In this document: one piece after another, positions 14,982-56,873 of the stretch
Layout: each line of letters opens with the position of its first letter
Position numbering within the stretch: the first letter of the stretch is position 1
DNA from: Candidatus Marinacidobacterales bacterium
Lineage (GTDB): Bacteria > Acidobacteriota > Vicinamibacteria > Marinacidobacterales > SMYC01
DNA: 64,000 nucleotides
Direction of reading: 5' to 3'
Assembly (NCBI GenBank): GCA_965197495.1
Contig: OZ240210.1
Location: forward strand, 7,998,481-8,062,480
Position numbers and translations under genes: made by a program
Notes under the pieces: generated by a model
What the model saw: the letters and a program-made list of their open reading frames with translations, nothing else
Database searches by the model: none
Told to the model about the DNA's origin: nothing

Positions 14982-15282
14982 GATCAACATTAAGCGCAAA
15001 GGCGCAAAGGCGCAAAGAAAAAGCAAGAAAAGAAGATGAGAGGAAACGCTCTTGTCGCTAAGTTGTTGGCCCCTGACCAACTCAGAACCGAGGGGCGCCG
15101 TCAGAATGTCACTGAGAGCGATAGAAATGAAGGACTGCGCAGGCTGTGGCGCGCGAGCCTAATCAACCTAACCAATGCCTTCGAGCAGTGAAAGTCTCAT
15201 ACCGCGCAAGCGGCTTTTCTTTCTTTTTCTTCGCGTCTTTGCGTCTTTGCGCCTTTGCGTTACGCTTTTCTTAACATTGATC
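14982..15282. repeat. MITE-like element: ~300 bp bounded by ~55-bp imperfect terminal inverted repeats (GATCAACATTAAGCGCAAAGGCGCAAAGG...), non-coding.
   Basis: 14982-15036 (gatcaacattaagcgcaaaggcgcaaaggcgcaaag...) matches the reverse complement of 15216-15282 (...ctttgcgtctttgcgcctttgcgttacgcttttcttaacattgatc). It lies between convergent genes. A partial copy of one arm is at 21907-21948. Confidence 0.5.
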
Positions 15283-16289: not shown

Positions 16290-16307
16290 CGCACGTCGAG
16301 CTTAAAC

Positions 16308-18033
16308 TGAAGTTCCTTGCTGAAAAAACCAAGATCCGGTGTTGATCCAATAAGATAGATGGAATCAATGGTGCTGGCTTCTGTCTACACGGTGATACCT
16401 TTGAGCAAGTCGTAGGCTCTCTGCTGTTTCGAGTCCGGAGTTGTCGTGACATCGAAGGTGGGCTCGTCGGGTCCGGCTTCCGGTCGCCGACATTTGTTTC
16501 GGACGATGTTGCTGAGAAGGCGCAGCAGCGTGCGGAAGCTGGAAGCTGGTCTCCCATCGTCAAGCTTCTTGGTGTGTATCTTGCGCAGGGCGGCCTCGGA
16601 GCGTTGCGCCGGAGCGACGGGGTCACGCTCGGCCTTCGCCTGCTGCTCCTCGTCAGAGAATACTAGCGGGCGCCAAACCTCCATCATGTGCCACAGGACG
16701 TAGTAGGCCAGCATGCACAAGAAGATGTGCGCCCGGACTCGGTTTTCGCGCCGGTGACGAATCGGCCGCACCTTTAGGTCCATGCTCTTGAAGGAACGAA
16801 ACGCCCTCTCGACCTGGGTCAGCAACTTGTAGCTGCGCACTGTGTCGTCGGTTTTCATCCGCTGCTCAGCAAGACTGGTGCGGATCACGTAGATGCCGTC
16901 AAGGGCAGCTTCCGTAGTGACCTTTGTGTCGTCGATTTCGAAGCTAAAGCTGTCGTCGCGAATGTCCAGCTTGAAGTGCTTGCCGACTTTGTACTTGTTG
17001 AGAACTTTGCCTACCCGCACACCGATTTTATCTTTACCATGCAGCTGACCTCGCCCGATCCGTTGGCGAATCCGTTCCAACTGCTTAACGATCGTCCCCA
17101 TGTGTCGCTTCCACCGCTGGAGCCGTTTGTTGGCGAGCTCAGAGTTGCCGTTGGCGAGGCGCGAGGCGTCGGCAGCCATCGTTGTCTCGTCTAGCTCGAA
17201 GTCGAAACCGTCGTCACGGATGTCGAGCCTATAGTACTTGCCGACCTTGTACTTGTTGAGGAGCTTTTTCACTGCAGCACGGATGTCCTCCTTGCCCTGC
17301 AAACGGCGCCGCTCGACCATCCGACAAACCTTCTCCAGCTCTTTGCAGGTTGCTTCGAGCAGAGCACGACGCTTGTGACGCCGCCTCTCGGCCAGCTCCG
17401 GATTGCGGCAAGCGACCAGCCTCTCGTTGGGGAAATCCGGGTGCGTCAACTCAAACAGGTTCCGCCTGTCGAATAGCCCCATCTGGATCACCCCATCGTT
17501 AATGAGCTTGCGAATCGGTTCGGGACGCAGAGCGGTAATCCAGTCGATACCGTCCATCTCCCGTAACTCGTCGATCTGGGTCTGGGTGATCATTCCGCGG
17601 TCGCCCACCATCACAAACTGCTCGATGCCGAACCGCTCTTGCGCATTTTCTACCTGAGGCAACAGCGTTTTGGGATCGCCCGTGTTGCCCTCAAAGACGG
17701 ATACCGACACGGGGATGCCGCGTTCGTTGGTCAGCAGGCCGTAGTTGACCTGCAGCTTGCCTTTCTTGCCGTCACGGTTGTATCCGAGCCTGGCCAGCGG
17801 ACAACTCACCCCCTCGAAGTAGCTTGAGGTTAGGTCATAGAGCGCGAGGCCGTCGTTTTGGAGATGGCGCGCCGCGAGTTTCTTTTCGATGACCTCCTGG
17901 CGTTTGAGAACCCAGTCCATGGCGGCATAGAGATCGTCTTCGTCGGCATCGCTCACCCCCAGGATTTCGGGCAGTGTGGTTGTGTGCCACCACAGGCTAG
18001 TCGCCAGCTTCGACTGCGGTTCGAGGATCCGGG
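16308..18033 (-). mobile_element. IS1634-family element copy 1, 3' portion (transposase aa ~112-663, ORF 16385..17956). It is separated from its 5' portion (24482..24973) by an inversion.
   Basis: It is >98% identical to the full copy 54656..56867, including the end CTGAAGTTCCTTGC. Homology stops at 18033 inside the tnp gene. Confidence 0.85.
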
Positions 18034-18425
18034 AGATCTGTGCTCGGAACCAGATAGAAATACTGAAGGGTCATGTGCGGCCTGAGCACGTGCACCTGTT
18101 GCTGAGCGTGCCGCCGAATTTGTCGCCGAGTCGAGTGATGCAGTTGATCAAGGGTAAGACGTCGAATCGTCTGATGCGCGACTTACGGACGATGCGGAAG
18201 GAGTTCTGGGGTCGGCACCTACGGGCACGGGGTTACTTCGTGGTGACAACGGGCAACGTGACGGATGAGGTGATAGCGAAGTATATAGAGTTGCAGGGTG
18301 CCGTGCCCCAGGACGACGATTCTTTCAAGGTCAGTGAGTAGTGAAACGAGGCAAGGACAAGCCGACTTTAGTCGGCGACGTGAACCCATCGCCTTTAGGC
18401 GATGGAGCGCACGCGCTCAGTCTTT
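18034..18425 (+). mobile_element. tnpA: IS200/IS605-family element fragment: tnpA C-terminal half (18034..18341, ...EICARNQIEILKGHVRPEHVHLLLSVPP...FWGRHLRARGYFVVTTG...) plus the right-end subterminal hairpins.
   Basis: The Y1 HUH transposase signature (HVHLL, YFVVTTG) is present. Hairpins ccgactttagtcgg and tcgcctttaggcga follow the stop. The matching N-terminal half is at 24974..25111 on the opposite strand. Confidence 0.75.
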
Positions 18426-18643
18426 CTTGTATATATATCAGGAGGGGCCTGTGGGCGCTCGTGGGAAACGCGAAGCGTTTTCCAAGCGATTGTGGAAAAC
18501 GCCGCTCCACGTTTGTACGTGCTCACAACCTTTCCCTAAACGCCTCTCTCGCCCGGAGTTTCCGGCGTTTTCCACAATCGCGGCAGCGTCCATAGGCCAT
18601 GCCCTCCAACACAAATCAGATCCCCCGAAACGACAGGAGAACC
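18426..18643 (-). mobile_element. Left terminal region of the ISL3-family element, including the inverted-repeat terminus (IRL) ending at 18643. The inversion displaced it from the ISL3 body at ~25.2-28.57 kb.
   Basis: Terminus GGTTCTCCTGTCGTTTCGGGG (reverse complement of 18623-18643) matches the right end GCCTCTCCTGCCATTTCAGTGG at 28570 in 15 of 21 positions. The 8-bp ACAGTTTT at 18644-18651 is duplicated as its reverse complement at 28571-28578. Confidence 0.55.
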
Positions 18644-20233
18644 ACAGTTTTTATCACGTCACGAGGATCGAATCACAGGGGTACTGAGCGGATTCGACCG
18701 GTTGGTGTTCCGCGGAACCCTACGCCACATTTCTTATACGGACGGCATGGGTAAGTACCTTTCCTACCAGAAAATCCTTCTGAAGGAGTTCGCGGAGTTC
18801 GCACTGCAGCGTACCTCCGAGCTCAAGCAGGCCTTGTATCAGCAGGCGGAGCGACTCGAGCGTCCGGTCGTCTATCTGGAGTCTTCCCGTAAGAACAAGG
18901 AGGCCATCGCACGCGAGATTGCACAACAAGACAATGTCCGCAGTGGTCTCATCGCAGCGCTGAGCTGCGTGGAACCTTGTATCACCTTCAGCATACGTCG
19001 CAACCGCCAGAAGAAGCGGTTGGAGCTCGTGCAATTCCTCAGAAAGTGCCTAAACTTTTACCACTACTGCATGGACCCTATTTTTGGTTTCATGCATGCC
19101 CGTATCCAAAGCTGGTTTCCATTCAATGTTCAGGTCTACGTCAACGGCCGTGAATGGCTCGCCGTTGAGATGGATAAGGCTGGCATTCAATATCGGCGCC
19201 GGGAAAACTGCTTTACCTGGGTTGAGGATGCCCACGCGGCACAGCAGCTTCTCGATGAGCAGCTCAAAACCAACTGGCCTCACATCCTGAATCGCCTGAG
19301 TCGATTCGTCAATCCATTGCAAGACAAATTATTCCCGCCGAGTAGCCTCGACTACTACTGGAGTGTCTACAGCAGCGAATGGGCCACCGACGTCACGTTT
19401 CGTAACAGCTCTAGCCTCGCGGAGATCTATCCCGCTCTTGTACATCATGCGATCACAAACTTTTCGAGCCCCGACGTGATGCGCTTTCTCGGAAAACGGA
19501 TTCGAACCGACTTTTCAGGGGAAGTCGTCAGCCGATTTCGCGACCGGCCCGAGGGTCTGCGTATCAAACATGCCCTCGACCTCAATTCCGTCAAACTCTA
19601 CGACAAACAAGGTTCCGTGCTCCGTGTGGAGACAACCATCCAGCGTGCCGAGGGTATGCGCTGCTACCGGCCAAAGGAAGGCGACCCCAACGGCCCTCTC
19701 GAGTGGCGTCCGCTCCGTCGTGGCATCGCAGACCTGCATCGTCGTGCCCAGCTCTCCCAGGACTCCAATGAGCGCTACCTCGACGCTCTCGCCGCTTGTG
19801 ATACCTCAACCCCACTCGGTCGACTCCTCGCTCGCGTCAGCCAAAAAACTCAATGGAATAGCTCCACCCTCCGAGCTCTTCGCCCTTGGGACGCTCTGGA
19901 CGCCCGACTCCTCGCCGCTATTTCCCGTGGAGAGTTTCATCTGCGAGGCTTTCGCAACAGGGAACTCCGTGCCTTGCTCTTTCCAAAGACTTCGGACGAC
20001 CCTCTCGAAACCAGGCGGCTAAGCGGACGCGTCACCCGGCTCATTCGCATCCTCCGAGCCCACCGTCTTGTCAAAAAGTTCCCAAAACTTTTCGCTACAG
20101 ACTCACAAAGCGCGGTCAGCAACTTTGCTCCGCATTACTTACCGCAAACTCTCTCTCCCTCGATAAACTCCACGCTGCTGCCGCATGATTTTTCTTCTTC
20201 TCAAAACAAGCTTTTCAGGGTTAGTAGTACAGA
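18644..20233 (+). mobile_element. 'ISx' copy A: an unclassified ~1.7-kb repeat element that lacks its first ~110 bp. ORF 18702..20336 encodes a ~530-aa protein 99% identical to 40321..41907, with a frameshifted C-terminus (A5G at 20074-20079 versus A7 in copy B).
   Basis: It is 99% identical at the nucleotide level to 40367..41951, with flank-dependent divergence at both ends. The missing 5' piece is at 28571-28680 on the other strand. Confidence 0.7.
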
Positions 20234-20483
20234 GAAAGCGAAAGCGAGAGCGAGGAAGAGCACTCGGCGGGCTCTATTGATGCTTCTGTGTTCGACGCTG
20301 CTAGCAGCGTCATCCCGGCGGACGGTGACGTCGTGAGCTCCCTGGAAGATCTCGTCGCGCCCAGCGGAAATGGTAAGTGTTTTCGAAACTCTGTGTCTCT
20401 GTGGGCATTCTTAAGGCGCCTCATGCACACGATTTGGGGAGCGGCCGAGCTTTCAGGTTTACCTGGATAGCATTAGTAGTACG

Positions 20484-21893
20484 GTGCGCTACGCTGATTT
20501 ATCATGGGCGCGCATGGCGAGCTTCTCCGAGTTCAGCACCCATCGACGGACAGCCGCGATTCTTCTCGGCGAAGGCACGTCGGCTGCCTATCTCGCAGGC
20601 GTCATGAGCGCGCTCAAGAATGCCGGCGTGCGTGTCGACATGATCCTCGGCAAAGGCGCCGGGGCACTCGTCGCGGTTTTCAGCTCCATCGATGCCGAAG
20701 AGCGACTTCATGGAGACGCGGGACTGCTGGCCCGGGCCAGTGGCGAACACCCATGGCGCTTGCGACCCTTATACAAGAAGATGCTTGCCTGTCTTCTGGT
20801 TGCACTGGCCGCATTTCTCTCGCCGGTTTTGTTCGGGCTCGCGGCCGTTCTCGCGCTTCCGCTTCAAGCCTTGGGCCGCCTTCTGTTGGGGGGGGCGGAG
20901 ACGGCGCTCCCGGGGGTCGGGGCGCAATGGTTGCCCGCGCTGTTAGAGGCCGCCGAGCCGGTCTATCTCCGCGTGATGGTGCTCCCGCTCGCTGCGCTGT
21001 GCGCGATTTGGGTCGCGTGGTGGCTATCGAGCTTCGCGCGGCAACGTGGCGCGCCCTCGCTTCCCGAGCTCTACGACCTCGAGCCGCTCGCGGCGCTCGT
21101 CGAGACCAAGCTATGGCAAGCTGTGCGGGGCGCGTCGACCGGCGATCGGCCACGGGAGCGAAGGGATATCGGCGGCGCCTATCAAGAACTTCTGTCGGGA
21201 AGCCTCGGGCAGCTCGGTTTTCGCGAGCTCGTCTTCTACGCTCTCGATACCGATAGCGGTCGCGAAGTCTCTTTTGCGCTCTTGAAGGATCATTTTCTCA
21301 AAAAGCTTTCATCGAACGGCGCGGGGCGAGCGCGGCGCCGGGAGACGATCGATCTCGCCAAAGACGGTGGCCCGCTATTGTTCGATGCTTTGATGGCGGC
21401 GTTGAGCCCAGTTGGCCTCGTGCCGACCGTGCCGATCAAGCTTCCGCTCGATACCACCTTCGGGGGCGAGGTTCACCGCTTCGCCGGGAGCCTCCTAACC
21501 GGCTCGAGCGCGGTTCAGGACGCCGTGGCCGCGGGCGCCGAACAAATCATCTATGTCGCCGGCTGCGCTCCCAGCGACCGCCCGGGCGGCAATGCGATCG
21601 AGCGGTTCATCGAGGCGTCGGTGCGGCGAACTTTGAGCGACGATCTCGCCGAAGCGACGAGACATACCGACCTCCCTGTTTTCCTGATCCGCCCCGACAA
21701 GCAACGACTGAACCCGTTCGAAGTGACGGGCCGCGCGCAGATTGGAAACGAGCGGCTCGACTTGAACGCGCTGATCGCGCATGGACGCCGCGACGCGCTG
21801 CGGCTGTTCGTAGAGCCCGTGCTGGGTGACGATGCTTCCGAGCACGACCGGAGCTTGATGAAGGTGCCGCAAGCGGGGCCTCGCGAGCTTTAG
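20484..21893 (+). CDS. Patatin-like phospholipase-family protein with degenerate motifs (GEG for GGG; GKGAGA instead of GxSxG) and two central TM helices. Probable start M at 20514.
   Basis: LLGEGTSAAYLAGVMSAL...ILGKGAGALVA has patatin-like spacing, but the nucleophile Ser reads Ala. The C-terminal region has DGG...D resembling the patatin Asp motif. Confidence 0.4.
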   Translation: MRYADLSWARMASFSEFSTHRRTAAILLGEGTSAAYLAGVMSALKNAGVRVDMILGKGAGALVAVFSSIDAEERLHGDAGLLARASGEHPWRLRPLYKKMLACLLVALAAFLSPVLFGLAAVLALPLQALGRLLLGGAETALPGVGAQWLPALLEAAEPVYLRVMVLPLAALCAIWVAWWLSSFARQRGAPSLPELYDLEPLAALVETKLWQAVRGASTGDRPRERRDIGGAYQELLSGSLGQLGFRELVFYALDTDSGREVSFALLKDHFLKKLSSNGAGRARRRETIDLAKDGGPLLFDALMAALSPVGLVPTVPIKLPLDTTFGGEVHRFAGSLLTGSSAVQDAVAAGAEQIIYVAGCAPSDRPGGNAIERFIEASVRRTLSDDLAEATRHTDLPVFLIRPDKQRLNPFEVTGRAQIGNERLDLNALIAHGRRDALRLFVEPVLGDDASEHDRSLMKVPQAGPREL

Positions 21894-21906
21894 GGTCCGG
21901 GCTGCG

Positions 21907-21960
21907 AGATCTAGAGAAAAGCGTAACGCAAAGGCGTCAAGGTTCAAAGACGCGAAGGTT
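21907..21960 (+). repeat. Solo copy of the MITE terminal repeat (aaaagcgtaacgcaaaggcg...caaagacgcgaagg) overlapping a hairpin gaaggttcaaaccttc. It lies 14 bp downstream of the patatin-like gene and may act as a terminator.
   Basis: A 20-nt and a 13-nt exact match to the 15216-15275 arm. The hairpin has a 6-bp stem. Confidence 0.4.
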
Positions 21961-21980
21961 CAAACCTTCAGCGCTGTACA

Positions 21981-22565
21981 ATGGGACCAGTTATGTCCAG
22001 TGTTCTCGATTTGACCTTTATCGGCCTCGCGGGGCTCTTTACGGTGTGGAACGTCTTTTTTCTAGCTCGCTACGCGCGATATCGGCGCCTCATGCCCACC
22101 GCCGAGCTCACGTGGCGGCCCACCCGGCCGTGGTTTTACAACATGTGCATCGGCATCGGTTTTTTCATGGTGAGCATGACGGCGTTGAGCCTCTTCGTTT
22201 TGGATAGGCCAATCCTCTCGAGCGTGGCCCAGGGCCTGATGGCCATCTACTACACGATCGCCTTTCCTCTCTCGTTTCAAATTCAACCTGGTTTCTACAA
22301 GTCGGGCATCTGGTTCGACCGCTCCTTCGTGCCTTATACGAAAGTGCGGCGTTTGGGGTGGCGCGAACAGCCGGACATCGTTCTGATCGTCACGAAGGAA
22401 ACAGGCCTGATGGAGCAGGACTACGCGCGGCTTCAAGTTCCGAGAGAGCGCTACGGCGAAGCGCGGCGCATTCTGGCGAGCCATATCGATGACCAGAGTC
22501 TCTCCATCGAAACGGGAATTCTGGGGCTCGACGAGGGCGACATGCCGGCGCAGGAGCGCGTATGA
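21981..22565 (+). CDS. Hypothetical integral membrane protein (194 aa, ~4 TM). It overlaps the start of the downstream HMT/MTHFR gene by 4 bp.
   Basis: Hydrophobic segments LTFIGLAGLFTVWNVFFLA, FYNMCIGIGFFMVSMTALSLFVL and LMAIYYTIAFPLSF. An ATGA overlap at 22562 links it to the next gene. Confidence 0.4.
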   Translation: MGPVMSSVLDLTFIGLAGLFTVWNVFFLARYARYRRLMPTAELTWRPTRPWFYNMCIGIGFFMVSMTALSLFVLDRPILSSVAQGLMAIYYTIAFPLSFQIQPGFYKSGIWFDRSFVPYTKVRRLGWREQPDIVLIVTKETGLMEQDYARLQVPRERYGEARRILASHIDDQSLSIETGILGLDEGDMPAQERV

Positions 22566-24412
22566 CGTCGTTTGGACGAGACGCCTTCCGAAAGCGGCTA
22601 TCATCGGCGCCGCTCGTTTGCGACGGCGCCATGGGCACGTCGCTCTACGGCAAGGGCGTGATGGTCAACCGCTGTTTCGACGAGCTCAACCTCTCGAATC
22701 GCGAGCTCGTCCGGTCGGTGCATCGTGACTACCTCGGCGTCGGTGTCGACATCCTCGAGACGAACACATATGGCGCCAACCGTTTCAAGCTCGAGTCTCA
22801 CGGGTTCAAAGACCGCGTCCGTGAGATCAACGAGGCGGGCGCGGCCGTCGCGAGAGACGCCATCGGGGATAAGGATGGGCCCGTTCTCGTTGCAGGTTCC
22901 ATCGGTCCGCTCGGAAAACCGATCGCGCCGATCGGAACGATTTCCGAAGAGGAGGCGCTCGCGAGCTTTGGCGAGCAAAGCGAGGGATTGATCGCTGGCG
23001 CTGTCGATTTCGCGATTCTCGAAACGTTCTCGGATCTGCGGGAGCTCGGTCTCGCCATCCGCGCGCTGCGCGAGGTGGCGCCCGATCTGGCGATCGTCGC
23101 GCAGATGACTTACGGCGACGACGGATCGACACCGCTCGGCGCCAAGCCCGAGCACGTCGCCCGCAAGCTCTCGGAGCTCGACATCGACGCCATCGGCGCG
23201 AATTGTAGCGTCGGTCCCGAGCTCATGCTGCGCGTCGTCGAGCGGCTTGCGACCGCGACGAAGCTTCCGATCTCCGTGCAGCCGAACGCCGGTCTCCCCG
23301 AGCTTGTCGAAGGACGCGTCATCTACTTGAGCTCACCCGAGTACATGGGCCATTATGCGAAGCGTTTCTTGAAGGCTGGTGCCACGATTCTCGGCGGCTG
23401 TTGTGGCACGGCGCCCGACCATATCGGCGCGATGGTCGGCGTCGTTCGCGCGCTCGGCCCCGCGCGAAAGCAAATCGAAGTCGCCCCCGCCGAAGAGCGC
23501 GTCGAGCGCGAGCCCGTGCCGCGCGAGAAAAAATCACGTCTCGCGAGAAGCCTTGGGCGCAAATTCGTCGTCTCGGTCGAGATGGATCCGCCCAAAGGCG
23601 CGGACCCGGGACTCTTCCTCGAGAAAGCGCAGTGGCTGAAAGAGAACGAGGTCGACTACATCAATGTCGGCGACGGCCCGCGCGCGAGCGCCAGGATGAG
23701 CGCGCTGAGCTTCGCCGTCCTTCTCGAGCAACGTGTCGGCTTGGAGACGATCCTTCACTATCAATGCCGCGACCGGAACCTCATCGGCATCCAGTCGGAT
23801 CTGCTGGGGGCGCAGTCACTCGGCTTGCGCAACATCCTCGCGGTAACAGGCGATCCCCCCAAGCTCGGAGATTACCCATATGCCACCGCGGTCTTCGACG
23901 TCGACTCCGTGGGCCTCACGAAGATCCTCGGACGGTTGAATCGTGGTCTCGATCTTTCGGGAAATCCTCTCGGTCTTGCGCTACCGTTCCACATCGGTGT
24001 CGGGGTCAACCCTGGAGCGACCGACTTCGACGCCGAGATTCAGAAGTTCCAGAACAAAGTGGAAGCGGGCGCGGAATATTGCTTGACGCAGCCCGTCTAC
24101 GAGGCGCGCTATCTCGAACGGTTTCTCGAAGCGATCGAGAGCTACAGGATCCCCGTGCTCGTGGGCATCCTGCCGCTCGTGAGCTCACGCAACGCCGAGT
24201 TTCTCCACAACGAGGTGCCCGGCATGGCCGTCCCGCAGGAGATTCGCGACCGGCTAAGGAGCGCCTCGACGAAAGAAACCGCCCAGCAAGCCGGCGTGGA
24301 TATCGCGCGCGATGCTTTGCGAGCCGCGCGAGACCTCGCCGACGGTGCTTATGTGTTGCCGCCGTTCAATCGATTCGAGCTCGCGGTCAAGGTCATCGAA
24401 CACATTATCTGA
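22562..24412 (+). CDS. Bifunctional homocysteine S-methyltransferase / 5,10-methylenetetrahydrofolate reductase (N-terminal Hcy-binding domain fused to a C-terminal MetF domain).
   Basis: The N-terminus LVCDGAMGTSLY...GVDILETNTYGAN...GCCGT is an S-methyl_trans Hcy domain with Zn-binding Cys residues. The C-terminus HYQCRDRN...LAVTGDPP...VGVNPG is an MTHFR fold. Confidence 0.8.
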   Translation: MTSFGRDAFRKRLSSAPLVCDGAMGTSLYGKGVMVNRCFDELNLSNRELVRSVHRDYLGVGVDILETNTYGANRFKLESHGFKDRVREINEAGAAVARDAIGDKDGPVLVAGSIGPLGKPIAPIGTISEEEALASFGEQSEGLIAGAVDFAILETFSDLRELGLAIRALREVAPDLAIVAQMTYGDDGSTPLGAKPEHVARKLSELDIDAIGANCSVGPELMLRVVERLATATKLPISVQPNAGLPELVEGRVIYLSSPEYMGHYAKRFLKAGATILGGCCGTAPDHIGAMVGVVRALGPARKQIEVAPAEERVEREPVPREKKSRLARSLGRKFVVSVEMDPPKGADPGLFLEKAQWLKENEVDYINVGDGPRASARMSALSFAVLLEQRVGLETILHYQCRDRNLIGIQSDLLGAQSLGLRNILAVTGDPPKLGDYPYATAVFDVDSVGLTKILGRLNRGLDLSGNPLGLALPFHIGVGVNPGATDFDAEIQKFQNKVEAGAEYCLTQPVYEARYLERFLEAIESYRIPVLVGILPLVSSRNAEFLHNEVPGMAVPQEIRDRLRSASTKETAQQAGVDIARDALRAARDLADGAYVLPPFNRFELAVKVIEHII

Positions 24413-24481
24413 TTCGTGCGTGGCCGGTGCTGCTTCCGGCTGCCCGCTACCTGCACATCATTCAAGTCGCACCGCTTTAAG

Positions 24482-24973
24482 CTGAAGTTCTGCCCAGTAA
24501 GCCCTCCCACGCTTCGGTAAAGTACCTTTAGTCGCATGGAGTTACAGCGCTAGAGGTGTGATTTTTGCCTGCAATTGGTAGCCATGTTGTATTGTATTTT
24601 TTATTGTTATATATGCCTATATAGTGTATATAGTAGCCATGCACATCGATATCGTGCCCAACCGCAACTCCAAACCCGCCGTTTTGCTCCGTGAGTCCTA
24701 TCGGGATGCCAAGAGCAAGAAACCGCGCAAGCGCACACTTGCCAACCTGTCCAAACTGCCGAGCGAGCAGGTCGATGCCATCCGACGCATACTCAAGGGG
24801 CAAAAGCTCGTTTCGCTCGAAGACGCCTTCGAAATCGTCGAGAACGGCTCCCGGCACCATGGCCACGTCGACGCGGTGCTCAGTGCCATGAGACAGCTCG
24901 GTTTCGAAAAACTCGTTGGCTCTCGACACTCACCAGAGCGGGATTTGGTCGTGGCCATGGTAGTCGCCCGGAT
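24482..24973 (+). mobile_element. IS1634-family copy 1, 5' portion (end CTGAAGTTCTGCCC, leader, and transposase aa 1-117 from ORF 24624..).
   Basis: It matches the reverse complement of 56376..56867 of the full copy. Homology ends at 24973 (CCCGGAT). It complements the 16308..18033 fragment exactly, with a 7-bp overlap. Confidence 0.85.
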
Positions 24974-25195
24974 GAGATCCCGGAGACGAACCGCTACATC
25001 CCCTCTCAAGGCCGGCTTGCGGTACTTCGTGATAAATACGAAGTGATAGTTTAACTGATACGTCGTGTGCGATGATTTACGATATCCTTTCACCTGGGGA
25101 TCGTACCCCAAGCCTCCTAAAGGCTTCGCCTAAAGGCGAGGGATTTCAACCATCCCCGAGTGGGACATTAATTCATATGGAATAAGGAAGGGGGG
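24974..25195 (-). mobile_element. tnpA: IS200/IS605 fragment: tnpA N-terminal half (25111..24974, MGYDPQVKGYRKSSHTTYQLNYHFVFITKYRKPALRGDVAVRLRDLIR) plus left-end hairpins (tcgcctaaaggcga).
   Basis: It contains the Y1 transposase N-terminal HUH region (YHFVFITKYR). Joined through the shared ATCCGGG to 18034.., it gives an intact ~140-aa TnpA. Confidence 0.7.
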
Positions 25196-25744
25196 GCTCG
25201 ATTAGTGGAGGCTATGGAAAACGCCCTTCCAGGCTTCGAAGAGAACTCAGTCGTGAGCAAGGTCTGAACGACCAGAACCGTGGGGGCGTTTCCCACAGCC
25301 TCGTCTCCCGCTGAGGGGCAGTGGCATTTGGTGAGGCCCGTGGGTTGAGAGGGTAAGCCATGTGTAGATGCGCATCGGCGAGAACGCTAGAATCTTTTTT
25401 TCCGAAAGAGAAAAGAGCGTTCCCGCGATGCGCGTTACTACGTTAGTCAACAAGCTCATCGGATTGCAAGGCCTGTGGGTCCGAGGTTTCCACTTCCAGG
25501 CGGACAAAGCCAGAGTGGTGGTGGATGTAGTACCACGGAGGAGGAAGCCTCTGTGCGGGATTTGCGGACGAAAGGTCCGCAAGAACAAAGATCGCTACAA
25601 TCGCTACTGGCGGCACTTGGACCTGTTCGGAGTCCGGACCTATCTTCGCTACTCGATCCGACGAGTGGTATGTCGGCGGTGTGGAGTGGTCAGAGAAAAG
25701 GTGCCTTCCCTCTGTGCCAACATCGCTGAGACACTTCGCCCCTT

Positions 25745-27385
25745 GAAATTAGTGTAGAGGGCGGAGGAGGATCAATGCATGAGTATGTTGATTGAGAGAG
25801 AGACCTCGGCGGGATCGGAGGGAGCCCGTAGGGCGACTGGAGATCCCGCCGGCCGCGATGCGGCGGGGGTCCCGGATCCCGAAGTGAGCGAGCAAGCGAA
25901 GCGTCGACGCTTTACCGCGGAGTACAAGCTGCGGATAGTGCGTGAGGCCGATGCCTGCAAGGGTGACGGTGACGTTGCTGCTCTTCTGCGTCGAGAGGGC
26001 CTGTACTCGTCGCATTTATCGAGTTGGCGCCGCCAACGTGACGAGGTCGCCAAAGCGGGGTTGGCGTCGAGAAAGCGAGGCCGGAAGGCAAAGGCCGAGG
26101 ATCCACGGGTCAAGGAGCTCGAGCGCGAGAACGCCCGGCTCCAACGTCGCCTGGCTCGGGTGGAGACAATGTTGGAGACCAAAAAAAAACCTCCGAATTA
26201 CTGGGGATCCCCCTGAATCCACTCGACAGCTACGAGAACGACTGATGGTGGCGGCCGAGGAGCTGGCGGGGCAGATTGGGCAGACGACGGAAGCCTGCGA
26301 GGCTCTGGGTGTGGCTCGTTCCACGCTGTATCGCAGGCGCCAGGTGACGCCCGAACCGAAGCGGCGTCCTCGGCCGCACCGAGCCTTCGACGAGACTGAG
26401 CGCGAGGAAGTCCTCGGGGCCTCGCACTGTGAGCGGTTCGTCGACAAGGCGCCCGCCCAGGTGTGGGCCACGCTTCTGGACGAGGGAACCTACCTCTGCT
26501 CGATTCGCACGATGTATCGGATTTTGGAGGAGCACGGCGAGGTCCGAGAGCGCCGGAACCAACGGCGCCATCCGAACTACACGAAGCCGGAGCTGCTGGC
26601 CGAAGCGCCCAACCAGGTTTGGTCGTGGGATATTACGAAGCTTCGTGGCCCCGTCAAGTGGACCTACTACTACCTCTACGTCATCCTCGACATCTTCTCC
26701 CGCTACGTGGTTGGCTGGATGCTGGCTCACCGAGAAAGTGCGGCGCTCGCGCAACGCCTCATCGCCGAGAGCTGTCGCAAGCAGGACATTGAACCCGACC
26801 AGCTCACCCTTCACGCGGACCGTGGCAGCTCGATGAGAAGCAAGCCCGTGGCTCTGCTCCTGGCTGACCTCGGAGTTACCAAGACCCACTCCAGACCTTA
26901 TGTCTCGAACGACAATCCCTACTCCGAGTCCCAGTTCAAGACGATGAAGTACTGCCCTCAGTTTCCGAGCCGTTTTGGTTCCGCCGAAGACGGCCGGCTG
27001 TTCTGCGGCGGTTTCTTCGACTACTACAACTACGAGCACCGGCACTCAGGAATCGGCTTCATGACGCCGGCCGACGTTCACTATGGTCGCGCCGAACAGC
27101 TCACCACCGCTCGGCGCCAGATCCTTCTCGAAGCTCATCGGACTCATCCCGAACGCTTCGTTCGCGGAACGCCACAACCTCCCGTTTTGCCTCCTCAGGC
27201 TTGGATCAACCCGCCGACGGAGAAAACGACGCTCCTGAATGCCGCACAAGCCACTCTCGCGGCGGCGTCCATACCTGGGGTACCCCCTTTTTCTGCTCCA
27301 CGAAACGAGATCTCGATCGATGCAGATGTGGACCGCACCGGCGCCACGAGCCTCCCGACGCTAATCGAGGCTCACTAAATGCAGC
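25745..27385 (+). mobile_element. IS3-family element nested in the ISL3 transposase gene. orfA is 25779..26216 (HTH + leucine zipper). orfB is ~26186..27378 (DDE integrase core, e.g. NQVWSWDITKL...DNPYSESQF...YNYEHRHSGIG). An A9 run at 26182-26190 is at the orfA/orfB junction.
   Basis: This is the classic IS3 two-ORF organisation with an A-run slippery site. In this sequence orfB lies in the +1 frame relative to orfA, not the canonical -1 frame. Confidence 0.85.
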
Positions 27386-27654
27386 TCGCGAGTGTCTCAA
27401 AGTTGTTGACACGTACCGCTTGGGCCGACAAGGGAAGCCGCTTTACCAAAAGCTTCGAACAAGAGGTAGCGTGGCTGGCACAGAGGACGGACGTCAGCGC
27501 CGTAGCGAACTATTTCCGAGTGACGTGGCGTTCGGTGCGACGGATCATCCAGCGAGTGGTTGCCGAGCAGCGGGATGAGCGGCGCGAGCTCGATGGATTG
27601 CGGGTGATTGGGATGGACGAGATCAGCTACCGCAAACGCCACAAGTACTTAACC

Positions 27655-27840
27655 CTAATCGCAAAATCTTCGAAGCACGAAAACGCGAAACAGCCGCACT
27701 GGGCGCAGGCGAGAAGCTCGTGCTGGGGCACCCGCTCGCCGCCACTATAGGTGATTCTGCACGGTGTATGCAGAACCTGGAAAAGGTGCTATTCACGGGG
27801 CCAAAGACCTCAGACACGGTGACGTTTATTTGCGATTAGG
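27655..27840. repeat. 186-bp region: a 17-bp perfect inverted repeat (aaccctaatcgcaaa / tttgcgattagggtt) bracketing a ~155-bp insert that interrupts the ISL3 transposase reading frame.
   Basis: Removing 27670-27825 restores ...HKYLTL|VVIDHLSGRVVW.... It is either a hairpin-type micro-insertion or a local inverted duplication. Confidence 0.45.
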
Positions 27841-28570
27841 GTTAACAGTGGTAATAGACCATCTCAGCGGCCGGGTCGTCTGGGCGGGAAAGGAGCGCAA
27901 GGCCAAGACGCTGCTGCGGTTTTTCCGCAAGCTCGGACCACAAAGAGCCGCGGAGCTCGAAGCGGTCAGCATGGACATGTGGGAGCCGTACATAACTGTC
28001 GTCGGCAAAAAGGCTCCTCAGGCACGGGTGATCTTTGACCGCTTCCACATCGTCAAGCATCTGAACGAGGCCGTGGATAAGACCCGGCGCGAGCTGGTGC
28101 GCGAGCTCAAAGGGACTGCCCGGCGGAACCTCAAAAACACCAAGTTTCCCCTTCTCAAGGCCAAACACAACCGCAGCGCGAAAGACAAACGGGTGCTCCG
28201 CGAGCAGGTGCGAGCTAATCGTCGCCTCTACCGCGCCATGCTTCTGCGCGACGACTTCATGGACCTCTACACCTACAAAACCGAGACATGGGCCAAGAAG
28301 TTTCTCCGAGGATGGCTGCGGCGCGCTATGAGCTCGAGGATAGAGCCCGTCAAACGCGCGGCGAAGATGATCCGCAGCCACTTCGATGGCGTCATCGCGT
28401 GGGTCACGTGGAGACTCAGCAACGGCCGACTCGAAGGAATGAACAACAAAATCCGGCTGCTGAGCCACCGCAGCTTTGGACTCCACTCTGCCGAAGCTCT
28501 CATCAGTCTCGTCTACCTAAACTGTGGCGGTCTCACCCTCGAGAGGATCCACTGAAATGGCAGGAGAGGC

Positions 28571-28680
28571 AAAACTGTTTCACGGCGTCCTCCAGCGTGG
28601 GAAAGGGTTGTCGTGACATCTTCCTACTCTGGATGTGGCGCCGTGTCTACTTCACGCCCAGATTGTGCATCGAGCCCGCG
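28571..28680 (-). mobile_element. Detached 5' end of ISx copy A (first ~110 nt, including codons 1-16 MSRQPFPTLEDAVKQF). The ISL3 insertion separated it from 18644..20233.
   Basis: It matches the reverse complement of 40262-40371, then abuts the ISL3 right end. ACAGTTTT is duplicated at both ISx/ISL3 junctions. Confidence 0.65.
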
Positions 28681-28721
28681 TTGGGCTGACGTGGTGAGCG
28701 AGCCGACAGCGAAGAGTCAGG

Positions 28722-29087
28722 ATGAAAGACTTTCGAGATCTAAAGGTTTGGGAGAAGGCCCATCAGCTAGTCAAGGGTTTGTACCAGGCCACCGGCCACT
28801 TCCCAACCGAAGAGAAGTTCGGCTTGACGGCTCAGATGCGCCGAGCGGCGGTTTCCATCCCGGCGAATATTGCTGAGGGCTGTGGACGCGGTTCAGACCG
28901 GGATATGGCCCGCTTTCTTCAAATGAGTATGGGCTCAGCAAGCGAGCTCGAATACGAACTGCTCCTTGCCCACGAGCTCGGGTTGCTCGATAGCCAAAGT
29001 CTTCAGGAGCTTGCCGAGCGAACCACCGAGGTCAAGCGTATGCTCGCCTCTCTCATCCGGAGGCTCGAATCCGGAGCTGACCGCTGA
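28722..29087 (+). CDS. Four-helix-bundle protein of the TIGR02436 family ('23S rRNA intervening-sequence protein', Avd-like fold), copy 1.
   Basis: MKDFRDLKVWEKAHQLVKGLY...FPTEEKFGLTAQMRRAAVSIPANIAEG...GSASELEYELLLA is a family signature. It is 99% identical to 39853..40218 on the minus strand. Confidence 0.8.
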   Translation: MKDFRDLKVWEKAHQLVKGLYQATGHFPTEEKFGLTAQMRRAAVSIPANIAEGCGRGSDRDMARFLQMSMGSASELEYELLLAHELGLLDSQSLQELAERTTEVKRMLASLIRRLESGADR

Positions 29088-29192
29088 ATGCTGACCGCTG
29101 ACCGCTCGCGGCGGAGCCGTCCTCCAATTTGGTTGCGGCTCCGCCGCGCTGTGCCTCTGTGGCCATCCCCTTTGGTTGCGGCCACAGGCTGC
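29075..29192 (+). repeat. Hairpin repeat element copy a. The motif gctgaccgctga(atg)ctgaccgctgaccgctcg is followed by a 12-bp GC stem GCGGCGGAGCCG with a 16-nt loop TCCTCCAATTTGGTTG, then ...CGGCTCCGCCGC and gctgtgcctctgtggccat. It starts inside the last codons of the 4HB gene.
   Basis: Copies with the same core are at 39735-39866 (minus), 41931-42030 and 42169-42298. Confidence 0.7.
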
Positions 29193-33144: not shown

Positions 33145-33609
33145 CTACCTACCCCGTCGAAATCGAAAGCGCTGAATCCAGCGTATCCTCACAGGGACCC
33201 CGTTCTTGGTCGCCGGTTGATAGCGCCATTCTTGGACTGCCCGGGTCGCGTTGGCGTCGAACATCTCGCCGCCCGACTTTTGAACCGTGACATCTTGGAC
33301 CGCGCCGTTTTCGTCGATGACATAGCTCAGCTCGACCAACCCTTCCATTCCTCGTCGCCGCGCCTCTTCTGGATAGGGGGCTGCTCTACACTCGAGACAT
33401 TTGGGATCGATAACACCAGAGTCCCCGCGCTCGACGAGCGTCCCAGATGAGACCGATGCGACCTTCGGCGCTTTTGTCGTCGGCGACGGGGAGGGGTTAC
33501 GCGCGGCACGACCATCCCGCGTCAACATCGCGTCGACATGGTGTCCGCACAATCGGGCCAGACGATCAATGTCTTCCCACGGCAAATAGCCTCGACGCTC
33601 AATGCGCAC
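33145..33609 (-). CDS. TonB C-terminal-domain protein. The true start is probably M at ~33528; the annotated start would overlap the upstream kinase by 88 nt.
   Basis: PYPEEARRRGMEGLVELSYVIDENGAVQDVTVQKSGGEMFDANATRAVQEWRYQP matches the TonB_C fold consensus. Confidence 0.5.
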   Translation of the reverse strand: MRIERRGYLPWEDIDRLARLCGHHVDAMLTRDGRAARNPSPSPTTKAPKVASVSSGTLVERGDSGVIDPKCLECRAAPYPEEARRRGMEGLVELSYVIDENGAVQDVTVQKSGGEMFDANATRAVQEWRYQPATKNGVPVRIRWIQRFRFRRGR

Positions 33610-35513
33610 GACCCGGTTCCCTGGAGGGACCCCGTACTTTTCTGTGGGTGTCGTCCCGACCCTCTGGCCGTCGATGGCAACCCGCGCGCCGCCGGTACCA
33701 GCACCAGTTCGAAGTTCGCGAGAGGCTCTTCTCCCGTCAACGCGGCGCTGAGCTCTTCCGGAAGATAGCCCGATCGTTCGACTCTCAGCGCGTAGTCACC
33801 AAACGGGAGTGCTTCGAGCTCGAGGGGCGTGGTGCCGCGTTTCACACCGTCGAGAAAGACAAGAGCGCCCTCCGGTTCCGTCGTCACCGTCAACGTACCG
33901 GATTCGACGGCCGTCGACGCGGTCACAGCGTCCGGGATCGGCTCTCCGCCCGAAAAAATGAGGAACAAAGCGAAAATCATCGCAACGAAGACCCCCGCTC
34001 CGAGAGCCAGCCGCCTGGGAGGCAAAGCACGCAGCCTGGCAATAGCAGTCCGGGCAGTCCGGGCGGGCGGGCCTTGGATGACGGTTTCGTCCGCCGCGTC
34101 GAAGGCGCGGAGCGTTTCGTCCAGCTCGGTTTCCGCGTACAAAGTCGCTTCAACGTCACCCCGCGGAGCCATGAGCACCGTGTCCTCGCCGATTTCTTCC
34201 TCGCTCGGTCGGGCCTCGCGGTTCGTATCCGCCGACACGTCGACGAGCGTGCGATCACGCCTGAGGGTCATCGTCACGCCTTCGAGCGATTCGTCTCGGC
34301 CGGCCGCGGTGGGGGCGCTTTCGGTGGCGAGCGCGTCAACGGATAGGACCACGGTATCGCTCGAGGCATTCTCAACTGGCTCAACTGGCTCAACTGGCTC
34401 AACTGGCTCAACTGGCTCAACTGGCTCAACTGGCTCAACTGGCTCAACTGGCTCAACTGGCTCAACTGGCTCAACTGGCTCAACTGGCTCAACTGGCTCA
34501 ACCGGCTCAACCGGCTCAACCGGTTCAACCGGCGTCGACGACACCGAGCGAACGGGGGCGGCGTCGAAGCGAACATCTTTCATGACGATGGTCTCGCCCT
34601 CGAGACCACCGAACCAGGACCCGAGGCAATGTTCGAGGTGCACGACGAACTCCGCTGCCGTGGAAAAACGCTCGTCCGCCTCTTTCGCGAGCACTATCGA
34701 GAAAACGTCGTGCCATTTGTCGGGCAGAAGACCCAACACTTCCAAATCGTCCGGGCGGACGGGATCGGCGTGGACAAGCTTGTATAGGATCGACGTGACG
34801 TTGTTGCCCGGAAAAGGTTGCTGTCCGGAGAGCATCTCGAACGCAACGACACCGAGCGAAAAAATGTCGCTCCGGCCGTCGAGATCCTCTCCCATCGCTT
34901 GCTCCGGTGACATGTAGCTCGGTGTCCCAAGCATGAGGCCCGAGTTCGTCATATCGGCATCCATGAGCTTCGCGATCCCGAAATCCGCGACTTTCACTTT
35001 CTCGCCGCCAAACACAATAATGTTGGACGGTTTGATGTCGCGATGGATGACACCTTCGCCATGGGCGTAGTCGAGCGCGCTCCCGATCTGGGAGACGAGA
35101 CCGACGACGACTGCGGGGCGGAGCTTTTCACCTTCGAGCAAGTCGGCGACGGTCTCGCCCTCGATGAACTCCATCGCAAGCCAGGGAAGCTGGTCGTCCG
35201 TGTGGCCGACATCGTAGAGAGTGATGATGTTCGGGTGCGACAAACGGCCCGCGGTGCGCGCCTCTGTCGCAAAGCGTTCGAGAAAAGCTTTGTAATCAGG
35301 ACTCTGCGACGGCACATCGACGCGCAACGTTTTCACCGCGACGGGTCGCTTGATCAGCGGGTCGAAGGCTTTGTAGACTGCTCCCATGGCACCGAAACCG
35401 ACCGCCTCGATGATCTCGTAGCGGTCGATCTTCTTCGGGATTTGGGCACCACGCTGCGTCAACGGGGTTCTCCTGTCGTACGGCTCGAATCTCTGGTCAG
35501 AACCGCCGGGCAC
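33522..35513 (-). CDS. Ser/Thr protein kinase with a 21x VEP tandem repeat, a TM segment and a C-terminal PEGA domain.
   Basis: Kinase motifs [29 protein letters not shown]. The DNA repeat (ggctcaact)n at 34370-34533 encodes (VEP)n. The C-terminus [35 protein letters not shown] is a PEGA domain. Confidence 0.8.
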
Positions 35514-39811: not shown

Positions 39812-39866
39812 ATTGGAGGACGGCTCCGCCGCGAGCGGTCAGCGGTCAGCATTCAGCGGTCAGCTC
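39735..39866 (-). repeat. Hairpin repeat element copy b, in the same relationship to the 4HB gene as copy a (starts in the last 4HB codons). Its 3' flank ctgtgcctccgtgtctctgtggccat...atcacggccgttc is shared with copy c.
   Basis: The reverse complement of 39738-39866 aligns with 42169-42298 over ~120 bp. Confidence 0.7.
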
Positions 39867-40218
39867 CGGATTTGAGCCTCCGGATGAGAGAGGCGAGCAT
39901 ACGCTTGACCTCGGTGGTTCGCTCGGCAAGCTCCTGAAGACTTTGGCTATCGAGCAACCCGAGCTCGTGGGCAAGGAGCAGTTCGTATTCGAGCTCGCTT
40001 GCTGAGCCCATACTCATTTGAAGAAAGCGGGCCATATCCCGGTCTGAACCGCGTCCACAGCCCTCAGCAATATTCGCCGGGATGGAAACCGCCGCTCGGC
40101 GCATCTGAGCCGTCAAGCCGAACTTCTCTTCGGTTGGGAAGTGGCCGGTGGCCTGGTACAAACCCTTGACTAGCTGATGGGCCTTCTCCCAAACCTTTAG
40201 ATCTCGAAAGTCTTTCAT
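39853..40218 (-). CDS. Four-helix-bundle protein (TIGR02436 family), copy 2, with one amino-acid difference from copy 1.
   Basis: Identical to 28722..29087 apart from E->K near the C-terminus. The upstream 100 bp are also identical. Confidence 0.8.
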   Translation of the reverse strand: MKDFRDLKVWEKAHQLVKGLYQATGHFPTEEKFGLTAQMRRAAVSIPANIAEGCGRGSDRDMARFLQMSMGSASELEYELLLAHELGLLDSQSLQELAERTTEVKRMLASLIRRLKSGADR

Positions 40219-41951: not shown

Positions 41952-42030
41952 AGACACAGCGCGGCGGAGCCGTCCTCCAATTTGGTTGCGGCTCCGCCGC
42001 GCTGTGCCTCTGTACTACTAACCCGAAAAA
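41931..42030 (+). repeat. Hairpin repeat copy d, embedded in a near-perfect 42-bp-arm palindrome (ttttcagggttagtagtacagagacacagcgcggcggagccg / loop / ...cgggttagtagtacagaggcac...). It is immediately 3' of the ISx gene and incorporates the ISx right-end sequence.
   Basis: Arms match in 40 of 42 positions. The loop is the same 16-nt TCCTCCAATTTGGTTG. Confidence 0.7.
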
Positions 42031-42298: not shown

Positions 42299-42419
42299 CA
42301 TCCACTGGAAGGCGCCCGTTGGCCCCGACGGAGGGGCCACCGGATGCTCCAACCAAACCGTTGCGCGCACGAAGCTTGCGTCGCGAGGGCGAAGTTGTTA
42401 TCAACTTAGAACGACAACG

Positions 42420-54644: not shown

Positions 54645-54655
54645 CACGGATTAGA

Positions 54656-56867: not shown

Positions 56868-56873
56868 ATTAGA

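Follow-up and report, generated by a model that had tools for sequence, protein, structure and literature searches.

The window, by which we mean the whole 64,000-nt stretch of contig OZ240210.1 analysed here, contains a block of three genes on the plus strand that is surrounded by fragments of one IS1634, one IS200 and one ISL3 element and of a 2.2-kb repeat that we named X (Table 1). One of the genes encodes a homocysteine S-methyltransferase/MTHFR fusion (HMT/MTHFR), as had been stated in the initial annotation of this DNA and as is borne out by its two Pfam domains. The 'patatin-like' identity given there to another gene of the block does not hold up, since its Pfam match is not significant (E 0.17; 12.5 bits, cutoff 27.7), and we use the term below as a mere label.

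Table 1. Features at and around the two junctions (J1 and J2), in window coordinates
Feature	Position	Strand	Basis and remarks
IS1634 copy A target-site duplication, first copy	16301-16306	-	CTTAAA on the plus strand = TTTAAG on the element strand
IS1634 copy A 3' part	16307-18033	-	terminal inverted repeat CTGAAGTTC, tnp codons ~115-663; gapless alignment to copy B, NCBIfam
J1 crossover core	18027-18033		ATCCGGG; 7 bp common to IS1634 and IS200, mismatches on both sides
IS200 3' part	18034-18421	+	tnpA codons 50-150 (stop 18341), right-end hairpin region
ISL3 left end (IS200 host), detached by the inversion	18422-18643	-	comparison with intact ISL3
Repeat X right part	18644-20235	+	versus 40362-41954, 99.5%
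Hypothetical protein, 459-469 aa ('patatin-like')	20484-21893	+	orthologue in conserved order in L007, L034, L097, L098
Hypothetical protein, 190-194 aa (putative membrane protein)	21981-22565	+	no match in Pfam or NCBIfam
HMT/MTHFR fusion gene, 616 aa	22562-24412	+	PF02574 (E 3e-68), PF02219 (E 9e-36)
IS1634 copy A target-site duplication, second copy	24476-24481	+	TTTAAG
IS1634 copy A 5' part	24482-24973	+	terminal inverted repeat, tnp codons 1-117
J2 crossover core	24967-24973		CCCGGAT, reverse complement of ATCCGGG; same in ENA contig_57
IS200 5' part	24974-25166	-	left-end hairpins, tnpA codons 1-46 (start 25111)
IS200 target TTAAT	25167-25171		comparison of IS200 copies
ISL3 remainder	25167-28570	+	interrupted twice: IS3-family element (25708-27418), 194-bp miniature element (~27650-27843)
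Repeat X left part	28571-29161	-	ISL3 target-site duplication 28571-28578; colinear with 18644-20235 only after undoing the flip
23S_rRNA_IVP-like gene	28722-29087	+	within repeat X left part
IS1634 copy B, intact, 2,212 bp	54656-56867	-	target-site duplication ATTAGA; tiling reference

The two IS1634 fragments, which lie in opposite orientation, belong to a single element (copy A). At present the 3' part holds a truncated ORF (16385-17956), and the 5' part reads through into a fusion ORF of 135-140 aa (24624/24639-25046); a further new fusion ORF lies at 17976-18341. When the segment between them is flipped in silico, a 2,212-bp IS1634 with an unbroken ORF of 658/663 aa is rebuilt, the fragments overlapping by exactly 7 bp when tiled. 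With these 7 bp counted once, the rejoined copy aligns without gaps to copy B (54651-56871) over 2,221 bp including flanks, with 2200/2221 positions identical. The restored transposase matches NCBIfam NF033559 with 328.7 bits (cutoff 100; E 7e-98) and Pfam DDE_Tnp_1 with an E-value of 1e-11, and the restored element is contiguous, running from CTGAAGTTC to GAACTTCAG between 6-bp duplications of TTTAAG. The initial annotation had already described the split into 16308-18033 (minus) and 24482-24973 (plus), and the tiling it proposed as a test leaves no overlap beyond the 7 bp; only the start of the larger fragment at aa 112 has to be revised, as homology begins at about aa 115. Inverted pairs of IS1634 are many in this IS-rich genome, and copies B and C form arms of 1,644 bp with 96% identity.

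The same flip rebuilds an IS200 of 588 bp. Its tnpA is currently divided into a 5' half (25111->24974, 46 codons) and a 3' half (18027->18341), and these join in frame to give 150 aa. The restored TnpA covers positions 2-121 of the 121 in Pfam Y1_Tnp (PF01797; E 1e-38) and 1-125 of the 126 in the NCBIfam IS200 profile NF033573 (144 bits, cutoff 55), and runs colinear with intact homologues (97% identity); the exact 150-aa protein is also present in intact form on 6 other contigs, all of them other loci. At the DNA level, four intact IS200 copies follow the window from 25171 to 24964 and then continue directly from 18027 to 18421. In 4/4 independent copies TTAAT precedes the element, which ends in ...GCGCTCAGT without a duplication, and palindromes that could form hairpins are visible at both ends. 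The restored element has the features of the IS200 group, i.e. a single Y1 (HUH) transposase of the expected size (about 130-150 aa), a fixed target and no terminal inverted repeats. The division of tnpA into a C-half and an N-half that fuse in frame to a complete TnpA of the IS200 type had thus been recognised correctly from the start, and the profiles support it; the protein measures 150 aa, or 144 aa if the alternative start is used, and not ~140 aa. We also considered other truncated IS200 genes (L087-L090) as signs of a breakpoint hotspot, but they are accounted for by tandem copies, an IS256 insertion or point changes, and are never broken at ATCCGGG.

The elements around IS200 behave in the same way. 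IS200 lies inside ISL3 and ISL3 inside repeat X, a nesting that the initial annotation had missed, and undoing the flip realigns both ISL3 and X; the duplications TTTAAG (IS1634) and ACAGTTTT (ISL3 in X, at 18644-18651 inside the right part of X) then become direct repeats. An intact ISL3 found on L092 corresponds to rc(18421-18644) followed by 25167-25707, 27419-27653 and 27842-28570. Besides the three genes, the inverted segment holds 224 bp of the left end of ISL3 and 1.6 kb of repeat X, with a truncated X ORF at 18702-20336. The 528-aa protein of repeat X belongs to a large family that lacks annotation, and its confidently predicted fold has no match in the PDB.

From these reconstructions, the DNA that was actually inverted spans 18027-24973 or, which amounts to the same, 18034-24966, each junction being credited with a single 7-bp core; it is a segment of ~6.9 kb with a 7-bp inverted match between two unrelated mobile elements. 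Both the inversion itself and the presence of ATCCGGG/CCCGGAT at the two junctions had been noted in the initial annotation and are confirmed here; the interval proposed there, 18034-24973, holds one of the two repeats only, and flipping it leaves the reading frame broken. We rejected this flip together with three other off-by-repeat variants because the IS1634 frame stays unrestored in each. In alignments the junction microhomology is exactly 7 bp long, with mismatches immediately on either side and no further homology. Microhomology of at least 7 bp would be expected at random blunt breakpoints with a probability of ~7e-4, and both tilings are exact to the base; the exact split and tiling of both elements is therefore far beyond chance. 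The exchange was also reciprocal, as undoing the flip restores IS1634, IS200, ISL3 and repeat X and yields the gene order of the relatives (see below). GC and AT skew, calculated for 10-34 kb, gave no usable strand-reversal signal.

The ancestral order can be read from related genomes. L007 and L034 stem from two other species, and their HMT/MTHFR has 94% and 73% amino acid identity, respectively, to that of the window. In both, ArgRS on the minus strand is followed by the genes for the 'patatin-like' protein, the membrane protein, HMT/MTHFR, VWA, ORF113 and DUF4159, all on the plus strand. The genes also stand in the restored order on L097 and L098, two conspecific contigs with 99.5-99.8% nucleotide identity, where window position 24483 joins straight to 16306 via one TTTAAG, without IS1634. 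The empty IS1634 site is likewise a single TTTAAG in L007, L097 and L098. As both the other species and the conspecifics have the restored order, and the latter a single TTTAAG, the inversion is, as judged from sequence comparison, derived and strain-specific. The comparison of synteny in related genomes that the initial annotation had asked for thus places the restored order in L007, L034, L097 and L098.

J2 is base-identical in a second assembly (ENA ERZ25072075, contig_57), whose strain can be told apart from that of the window through an IS256 insertion in VWA, and both assemblies that bear the IS insertions have the inverted form only. For J1 the window genome is the sole source; in the second assembly contigs end at window positions 15610 and 18606, flanking J1. 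Exact look-ups of the J1 ORFs in the protein collection returned no record, the J1 21-mer was absent from 99/99 fetched loci, and neither J1 nor the IS1634/flank junction was hit in scans of JGI metagenomes (0 matches). One might suspect an artefact of the assembly or library, that is, chimeric reads or a mis-join in repeated IS DNA, all the more so as each junction sits in 3.9-4.7 kb of multi-copy DNA and J1 is found in one assembly only. However, an overlap of 7 bp is far too short for a graph mis-join, a single chimera would yield one junction and not a balanced pair of exactly reciprocal ones, and J2 recurs to the base in an independent assembly, made from a strain that can be distinguished. 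An artefact of this kind is hardly credible.

Taken together, we regard the locus as very probably the product of one recent inversion of 18027-24973, reciprocal and exact to the base, by short-homology illegitimate recombination in one strain lineage of an uncultured acidobacterium of the class Vicinamibacteria, whose nearest named relative in the data is a 'Ca. Marinacidobacterales' MAG. The starting order was the 'patatin-like' ORF, the small hypothetical (possibly membrane) protein, HMT/MTHFR, VWA, ORF113 and DUF4159 on one strand. Beforehand, an intact IS1634 had inserted between HMT/MTHFR and VWA, duplicating TTTAAG, and a nested pile had formed upstream of the 'patatin-like' ORF, consisting of X broken by ISL3, which itself carried IS200 as well as IS3-family and miniature elements. 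IS1634 and IS200 were then co-oriented and ~6.9 kb apart, each with one ATCCGGG, the two standing opposite on the duplex. A crossover within the heptamer flipped the intervening DNA and left one heptamer per junction with zero bases lost or gained. It may have proceeded by a heptamer-guided break-and-join crossover or by two replication template switches. The heptamer is one of 5,662 inverted repeat pairs of at least 7 bp in the 12.8-kb interval. Three points weigh against this reading: 1,572 inverted repeats longer than 7 bp (up to 15 bp) in the same interval were left unused, J1 comes from one genome, and an un-inverted allele with IS1634 did not turn up in the exact protein search. As most of this interval is dispensable IS DNA, an inversion here would survive, which may account for both breakpoints lying in transposase genes.

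In a related scenario each IS suffered a double-strand break, and the fragment between them was put back the other way round by non-homologous or microhomology-mediated end joining. Alternative end joining typically leaves microhomology at the junctions, and 7 bp per junction is compatible with the annealing of resected ends. Two independent joins would rarely share one heptamer without a single base change, though, and joining after resection normally deletes sequence, whereas here both parental elements are rebuilt to the base. We consider this course of events improbable.

With regard to transposition, the initial annotation had preferred microhomology-mediated illegitimate recombination over a transposition product, and our data agree with it: the homology is limited to 7 bp and the breakpoints fall within the two transposase genes, far from the IS ends (in IS1634 they lie 1.7 kb and 0.5 kb from the ends, in IS200 midway through tnpA). 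As in inversions by intramolecular transposition (replicative or with alternative ends), an IS-adjacent segment has been inverted; such events, however, put an IS end at each breakpoint and leave inverted duplications. We rejected an inversion generated by transposition, as the breakpoints lack IS termini and the event made no new or extra IS copy. Inversions by homologous recombination between two inverted copies of the same IS also resemble our case in having IS DNA at both breakpoints in an IS-rich genome, but such an event keeps the two copies whole, unlike the split ones here, and the partners, IS1634 (DDE) and IS200 (HUH/Y1), are unrelated and have only 7 bp in common.

A tyrosine recombinase working on pseudo-sites would produce the same picture, a perfectly conservative exchange within 7 bp. 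The overlap region of these enzymes typically measures ~7 bp, which matches the conservative and reciprocal exchange within the heptamer, and the IS200 core is framed by a perfect 6-bp dyad (GATCTC-ATCCGG-GAGATC). The inversion might accordingly have been catalysed by such an enzyme at two pseudo-sites, or have followed cutting by the HUH/Y1 TnpA of IS200 or the DDE transposase of IS1634. The IS1634 partner site, however, has no comparable dyad and no similarity beyond the core. At the IS200 breakpoint the hairpin has no significant stability (z -1.8; 12/200 shuffles fold as well), and folding revealed no hairpin at the IS1634 breakpoint. Moreover, the breakpoint resembles neither the TTAAT target nor the ends of IS200 or IS1634 (CTGAAGTTC), for which reason we rejected cutting by either transposase, and a recombinase was not found among the annotated ORFs of the window. 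Catalysis by any of these enzymes is therefore very unlikely, and it is just as doubtful that ATCCGGG within the GATCTC...GAGATC dyad serves as a pseudo-core for a recombinase or a structure-specific nuclease. If it did, IS200 and IS1634 copies across the genome could recombine repeatedly or reversibly and would be a hidden source of recurrent inversions.

The segment could also be a programmed, reversible element of the phase-variation type, caught in one orientation. Like Hin/Gin/Fim-type invertons it is bounded by inverted repeats and arose by reciprocal exchange, and the orientation of a gene block changes relative to its neighbours. Unlike them, it has no extended repeats and no switching logic: the repeats measure merely 7 bp and are one of thousands of such pairs in the interval, and the flip wrecks a transposase gene at each end and switches no promoter. 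Neither the segment nor the other annotated ORFs of the window yielded an invertase gene. Furthermore, the un-inverted state is seen solely in strains without the IS1634 insertion; the un-inverted, IS1634-bearing intermediate was not found, its exact 658-aa transposase being absent from a collection of 15 billion proteins. A switch of this kind can be dismissed almost entirely.

The class of exchange favoured here, inversion by short-homology illegitimate recombination, is already known, and the locus does not reveal a new mechanism. Spontaneous inversions between short inverted repeats in enterobacteria were reportedly described by Schofield, Agbunag and Miller in 1992. In Salmonella chemostats, every verified spontaneous inversion had short inverted repeats at its endpoints; these were 12-18 bp long, and candidates with 7 and 9 bp failed verification (Sun et al. 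2012, PLoS One, PMC3411829), so that the precedent supports our reading while the repeat length weighs against it. Our case shares with these the short identical inverted endpoints, the simple balanced product and the lack of a mobile-element end or recombinase site at the breakpoints. It differs in the length of the repeat (7 bp vs 12-18 bp; PMC3411829), in being a natural, apparently fixed event in an uncultured acidobacterium and not one in a laboratory population, and in having both breakpoints inside transposase genes of unrelated IS families.

The inversion has destroyed both transposase genes, and the IS1634, IS200 and ISL3 copies are immobilised because their ends are left in the wrong relative orientation. 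The three-gene block now faces away from its former downstream neighbours. The initial annotation had inferred a change in the strand and operon context of these genes, which is right in direction, since the six genes are co-directional in the relatives; the added effect on the operon is smaller than implied there, as IS1634 had already put 2.2 kb between HMT/MTHFR and VWA. For annotation, the fragments of IS1634, IS200, ISL3 and X at 16307-29161 should be read as one disrupted nest and not as separate pseudogenes. The locus offers a clean natural case of a balanced inversion at just 7 bp of inverted microhomology, in which four nested mobile elements serve as internal rulers to demonstrate that no base was lost, and for which the ancestral allele (un-inverted and without the IS1634 and ISL3/IS200 insertions) survives in conspecifics at 99.5-99.8% identity. 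It indicates that an IS-laden genome can rearrange via its IS DNA without IS homology or transposase action, and that one such event can permanently immobilise several IS copies together.

Joining the two pieces of IS1634 copy A in silico, with the heptamer ATCCGGG counted once, yields an element that aligns with the intact copy B, one of three IS1634-family copies in the window, with 2200 identities over 2,221 bp and zero gaps. Its open reading frame comes to 658/663 aa and scores 328.7 bits against the NCBIfam IS1634 model (cutoff 100). Likewise, the two halves of the IS200-type tnpA join into a protein of 150 aa, which spans Pfam Y1_Tnp 2-121/121 and NCBIfam IS200 1-125/126, is colinear with and 97% identical to intact database proteins and occurs in exactly this sequence as an intact protein on 6 other contigs. 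Intact IS200 DNA on related metagenome contigs reads as window 25171->24964 directly followed by 18027->18421. Neither restored transposase ORF contains stops or frameshifts. The initial annotation had proposed that one inversion split both transposase genes, and this is borne out; its interval of 18034-24973 needs correction, as the inversion is real but these literal coordinates hold one of the two heptamers and do not restore the frame. In-silico flips define the inverted unit as 18027-24973 or, equivalently, 18034-24966. The crossover is confined to ATCCGGG, the bases directly on either side differing between the partners.

Mobile elements and repeats at and around the inversion
Feature	Position	Strand	Remarks
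IS1634 copy A, two pieces	16307-18033; 24482-24973	-; +	
IS1634 copy B	54656-56867	-	intact
IS1634 copy C	about 50038-52250	+	5' end diverged
IS200-type tnpA halves	25111->24974; 18027->18341		codons 1-46; rest
ISL3 left end	18422-18643/4		224 bp; intact copy in locus L092
IS3-family element within window ISL3	25708-27418		
Miniature element within ISL3 transposase gene	about 27650-27843		194 bp; TTAA duplication
X, intact copy	39781-41961		2.2-kb repeat; ORF 40321-41907 (+), 528 aa
X, copy interrupted by ISL3	rc(28571-29161) + 18644-20235		

Two elements beyond the initial annotation, ISL3 and the repeat X, are repaired by the same flip. At present the ISL3 left end and the right half of X are wrongly oriented with respect to the remainder of each element. 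ISL3, which interrupts X with the 8-bp duplication ACAGTTTT, and X itself become colinear after the flip, and both duplications are then direct repeats; the same holds for the TTTAAG target-site duplication of copy A (24476-24481 and rc(16301-16306)). The intact ISL3 of L092 corresponds to rc(18421-18644) + 25167-25707 + 27419-27653 + 27842-28570, i.e. to window pieces on either side of IS200, which places IS200 inside ISL3, 3' of a TTAAT. Since several loci share the combination of ISL3 with IS200 at this internal TTAAT (window 18422-18643 + 24974-28570; L093 8256-10756; L094 8464-10754), IS200 seems to travel within ISL3 as a composite. The IS3-family insertion is an extra of the window copy. 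The miniature element, whose empty site is present in L092, has perfect 13-bp TIRs (CCCTAATCGCAAA...TTTGCGATTAGGG) and is mobile, with copies at unrelated sites that are 99-100% identical (L002/L003 4096-4293; L004 9951-10148, in an IS200; L091 17449-17642; L094 6769-6966).

Further arrangements of these families were observed. Copies B and C face each other as inverted arms of 1,644 bp with 96% identity around ~2.4 kb including a PD40 beta-propeller gene (52246-53547), a composite-transposon-like arrangement and a substrate for homologous inversion. Another DDE transposase of 576 aa (Pfam DDE_Tnp_1) lies at 61517-63247 (+) and in L095 (9199-11146), where it adjoins an IS1634 copy; its 5' end is ~62% similar to IS1634, which makes it a distant IS1634/IS4-like element. 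Head-to-tail tandem IS200 copies (L004 9247-10620; L087 2151-3347; L096 9933-11129) join the right end ...CTCAGT to GTCCCAC of the next copy, without a TTAAT target.

The first junction, J1, is known from the window genome only; in a second assembly, ENA ERZ25072075, its position coincides with a gap separating two contig ends (window 15610 and 18606) within 3.9 kb of multi-copy DNA, a situation that might point to misassembly as the source of the inversion. This is very unlikely, because a 7-bp overlap cannot produce a graph mis-join, J1 and the second junction, J2, are exactly reciprocal, and J2 is identical to the base in contig_57 of ERZ25072075 (99.994% identity to the window over 15.8 kb). 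The latter is a distinguishable strain or assembly, since its contig_145 (L099 360-1819, = window 15252-15259) carries an IS256-family insertion with an 8-bp duplication in VWA, whose window counterpart is intact.

Scanning species-representative genomes with the HMT/MTHFR protein gave two informative relatives, a 'Ca. Marinacidobacterales' chromosome (L007, 94% aa identity) and an Acidobacteriota MAG (L034, 73%). In both, ArgRS(-) is followed on one strand by the patatin-like ORF, a small hypothetical (membrane?) protein, HMT/MTHFR, VWA, ORF113 and DUF4159, without any IS and exactly in the order of the restored window, so that the synteny comparison suggested initially agrees with the inversion. 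Stronger evidence on polarity comes from two conspecific contigs of other samples, L097 and L098 (99.5-99.8% nucleotide identity to the window), in which window ...24483 runs straight into 16306... via one TTTAAG; in L097, an X free of ISL3 precedes the patatin-like ORF on its upstream side. Thus the insertions of IS1634 and ISL3::IS200, like the inversion, all postdate a divergence of <0.5%. As the restored elements are intact with direct duplications, the insertions came first and the inversion last.

The breakpoints fall 1.7 kb and 0.5 kb inside IS1634, counted from its two ends, and in the middle of tnpA in IS200. They coincide with no IS end, are accompanied by no new copy and resemble neither TTAAT nor CTGAAGTTC, which excludes transposition chemistry; the lack of homology beyond 7 bp likewise excludes ordinary homologous recombination. 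The chance of at least 7 bp of microhomology at random blunt breakpoints in the interval is about 7e-4, and the microhomology was used in the exchange. That two independent end-joining events formed the junctions is less likely given the perfect base conservation, with zero bases gained or lost. With a 7-bp core only and no IS ends, the best-supported reading of the sequence is illegitimate short-homology recombination, as initially proposed; we infer that either a reciprocal crossover or a pair of template switches acted. The heptamer site is not special among the inverted repeats of the interval: the restored 12.8 kb contain 5,662 exact inverted repeats of at least 7 bp, including 1,572 longer ones. 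A dyad at the IS200 core (GATCTC-ATCCGG-GAGATC) does not fold into a hairpin of significant stability (z -1.8); at the IS1634 breakpoint there is no such dyad. None of the other damaged IS200 copies examined is broken at the ATCCGGG position, and no recombinase gene is found among the annotated window ORFs. The location of both breakpoints in transposase genes probably reflects tolerance of such inversions, since dispensable IS DNA makes up ~60% of the interval.

The ORF of X matches nothing in Pfam, NCBIfam or PDB sequences. Its homologues of ~516 aa number at least 7,988 and are all unannotated; most of them lie on contigs of just 1.7-2.7 kb, as is typical of multi-copy elements that have been collapsed. 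X is also present in L093 and L097. Its AlphaFold model is confident (pLDDT 86.6, pTM 0.81), and Foldseek returned no PDB match at E <=0.001 (TM <0.2). The protein is a candidate for the transposase of an IS family not yet recognised. A palindromic REP-like module of ~54-70 nt (CACAGCGCGGCGGAGCCG-loop-CGGCTCCGCCGCGCTGTG) borders the two X copies and is also found upstream of metH (42183-46100), its positions being 29107-29160, 39782-39833, 41948-42001 and 42202-42255. Homocysteine-methyltransferase genes are close to each of the X copies, possibly by coincidence.

Both transposase genes are now truncated, and new fusion ORFs arise at 24624/24639-25046 and 17976-18341. With their ends misfacing, the IS1634, IS200 and ISL3 copies are immobilised. 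The patatin-like/membrane/HMT-MTHFR block is now antiparallel to VWA/ORF113/DUF4159; in relatives, VWA follows it after 75-99 bp. The expected change of strand and operon context therefore holds for orientation, but the 2.2-kb IS1634 insertion had already split the blocks, and it is uncertain what the flip added in regulatory terms. The label 'patatin-like' for 20484-21893 (+) has no significant Pfam support, since Patatin gives only E 0.17 and 12.5 bits (cutoff 27.7). On visual inspection its glycine-rich motif and its nucleophile motif look degenerate (GEGTSA, GKGAG), and the ORF is kept in synteny across the order. Elsewhere, a Ser/Thr kinase gene with a PEGA domain (33522-35513, -) contains ~19 tandem 9-bp units (CTCAACTGG, then CTCAACCGG) at 34371-34540, an in-frame tripeptide repeat whose length could vary.

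When tested against known classes, the inversion falls outside invertons, transposition-generated inversions and IS-IS homologous inversions. In Salmonella chemostats all verified inversions had short inverted repeats of 12-18 bp at their endpoints, and 7- and 9-bp candidate repeats failed verification (PMC3411829). The window event resembles such spontaneous enterobacterial inversions in lying between short inverted repeats, at the short end of the range; in contrast to them it is naturally fixed, conspecific strains keep the ancestral, un-inverted order without the IS1634 insertion, and the host is an uncultured acidobacterium of the class Vicinamibacteria. It is a new instance of a known inversion class, a neat textbook example rather than a surprise, and the IS256 insertion in VWA of ERZ25072075, the sister strain or assembly with the identical J2, indicates that IS activity is still ongoing in this lineage.
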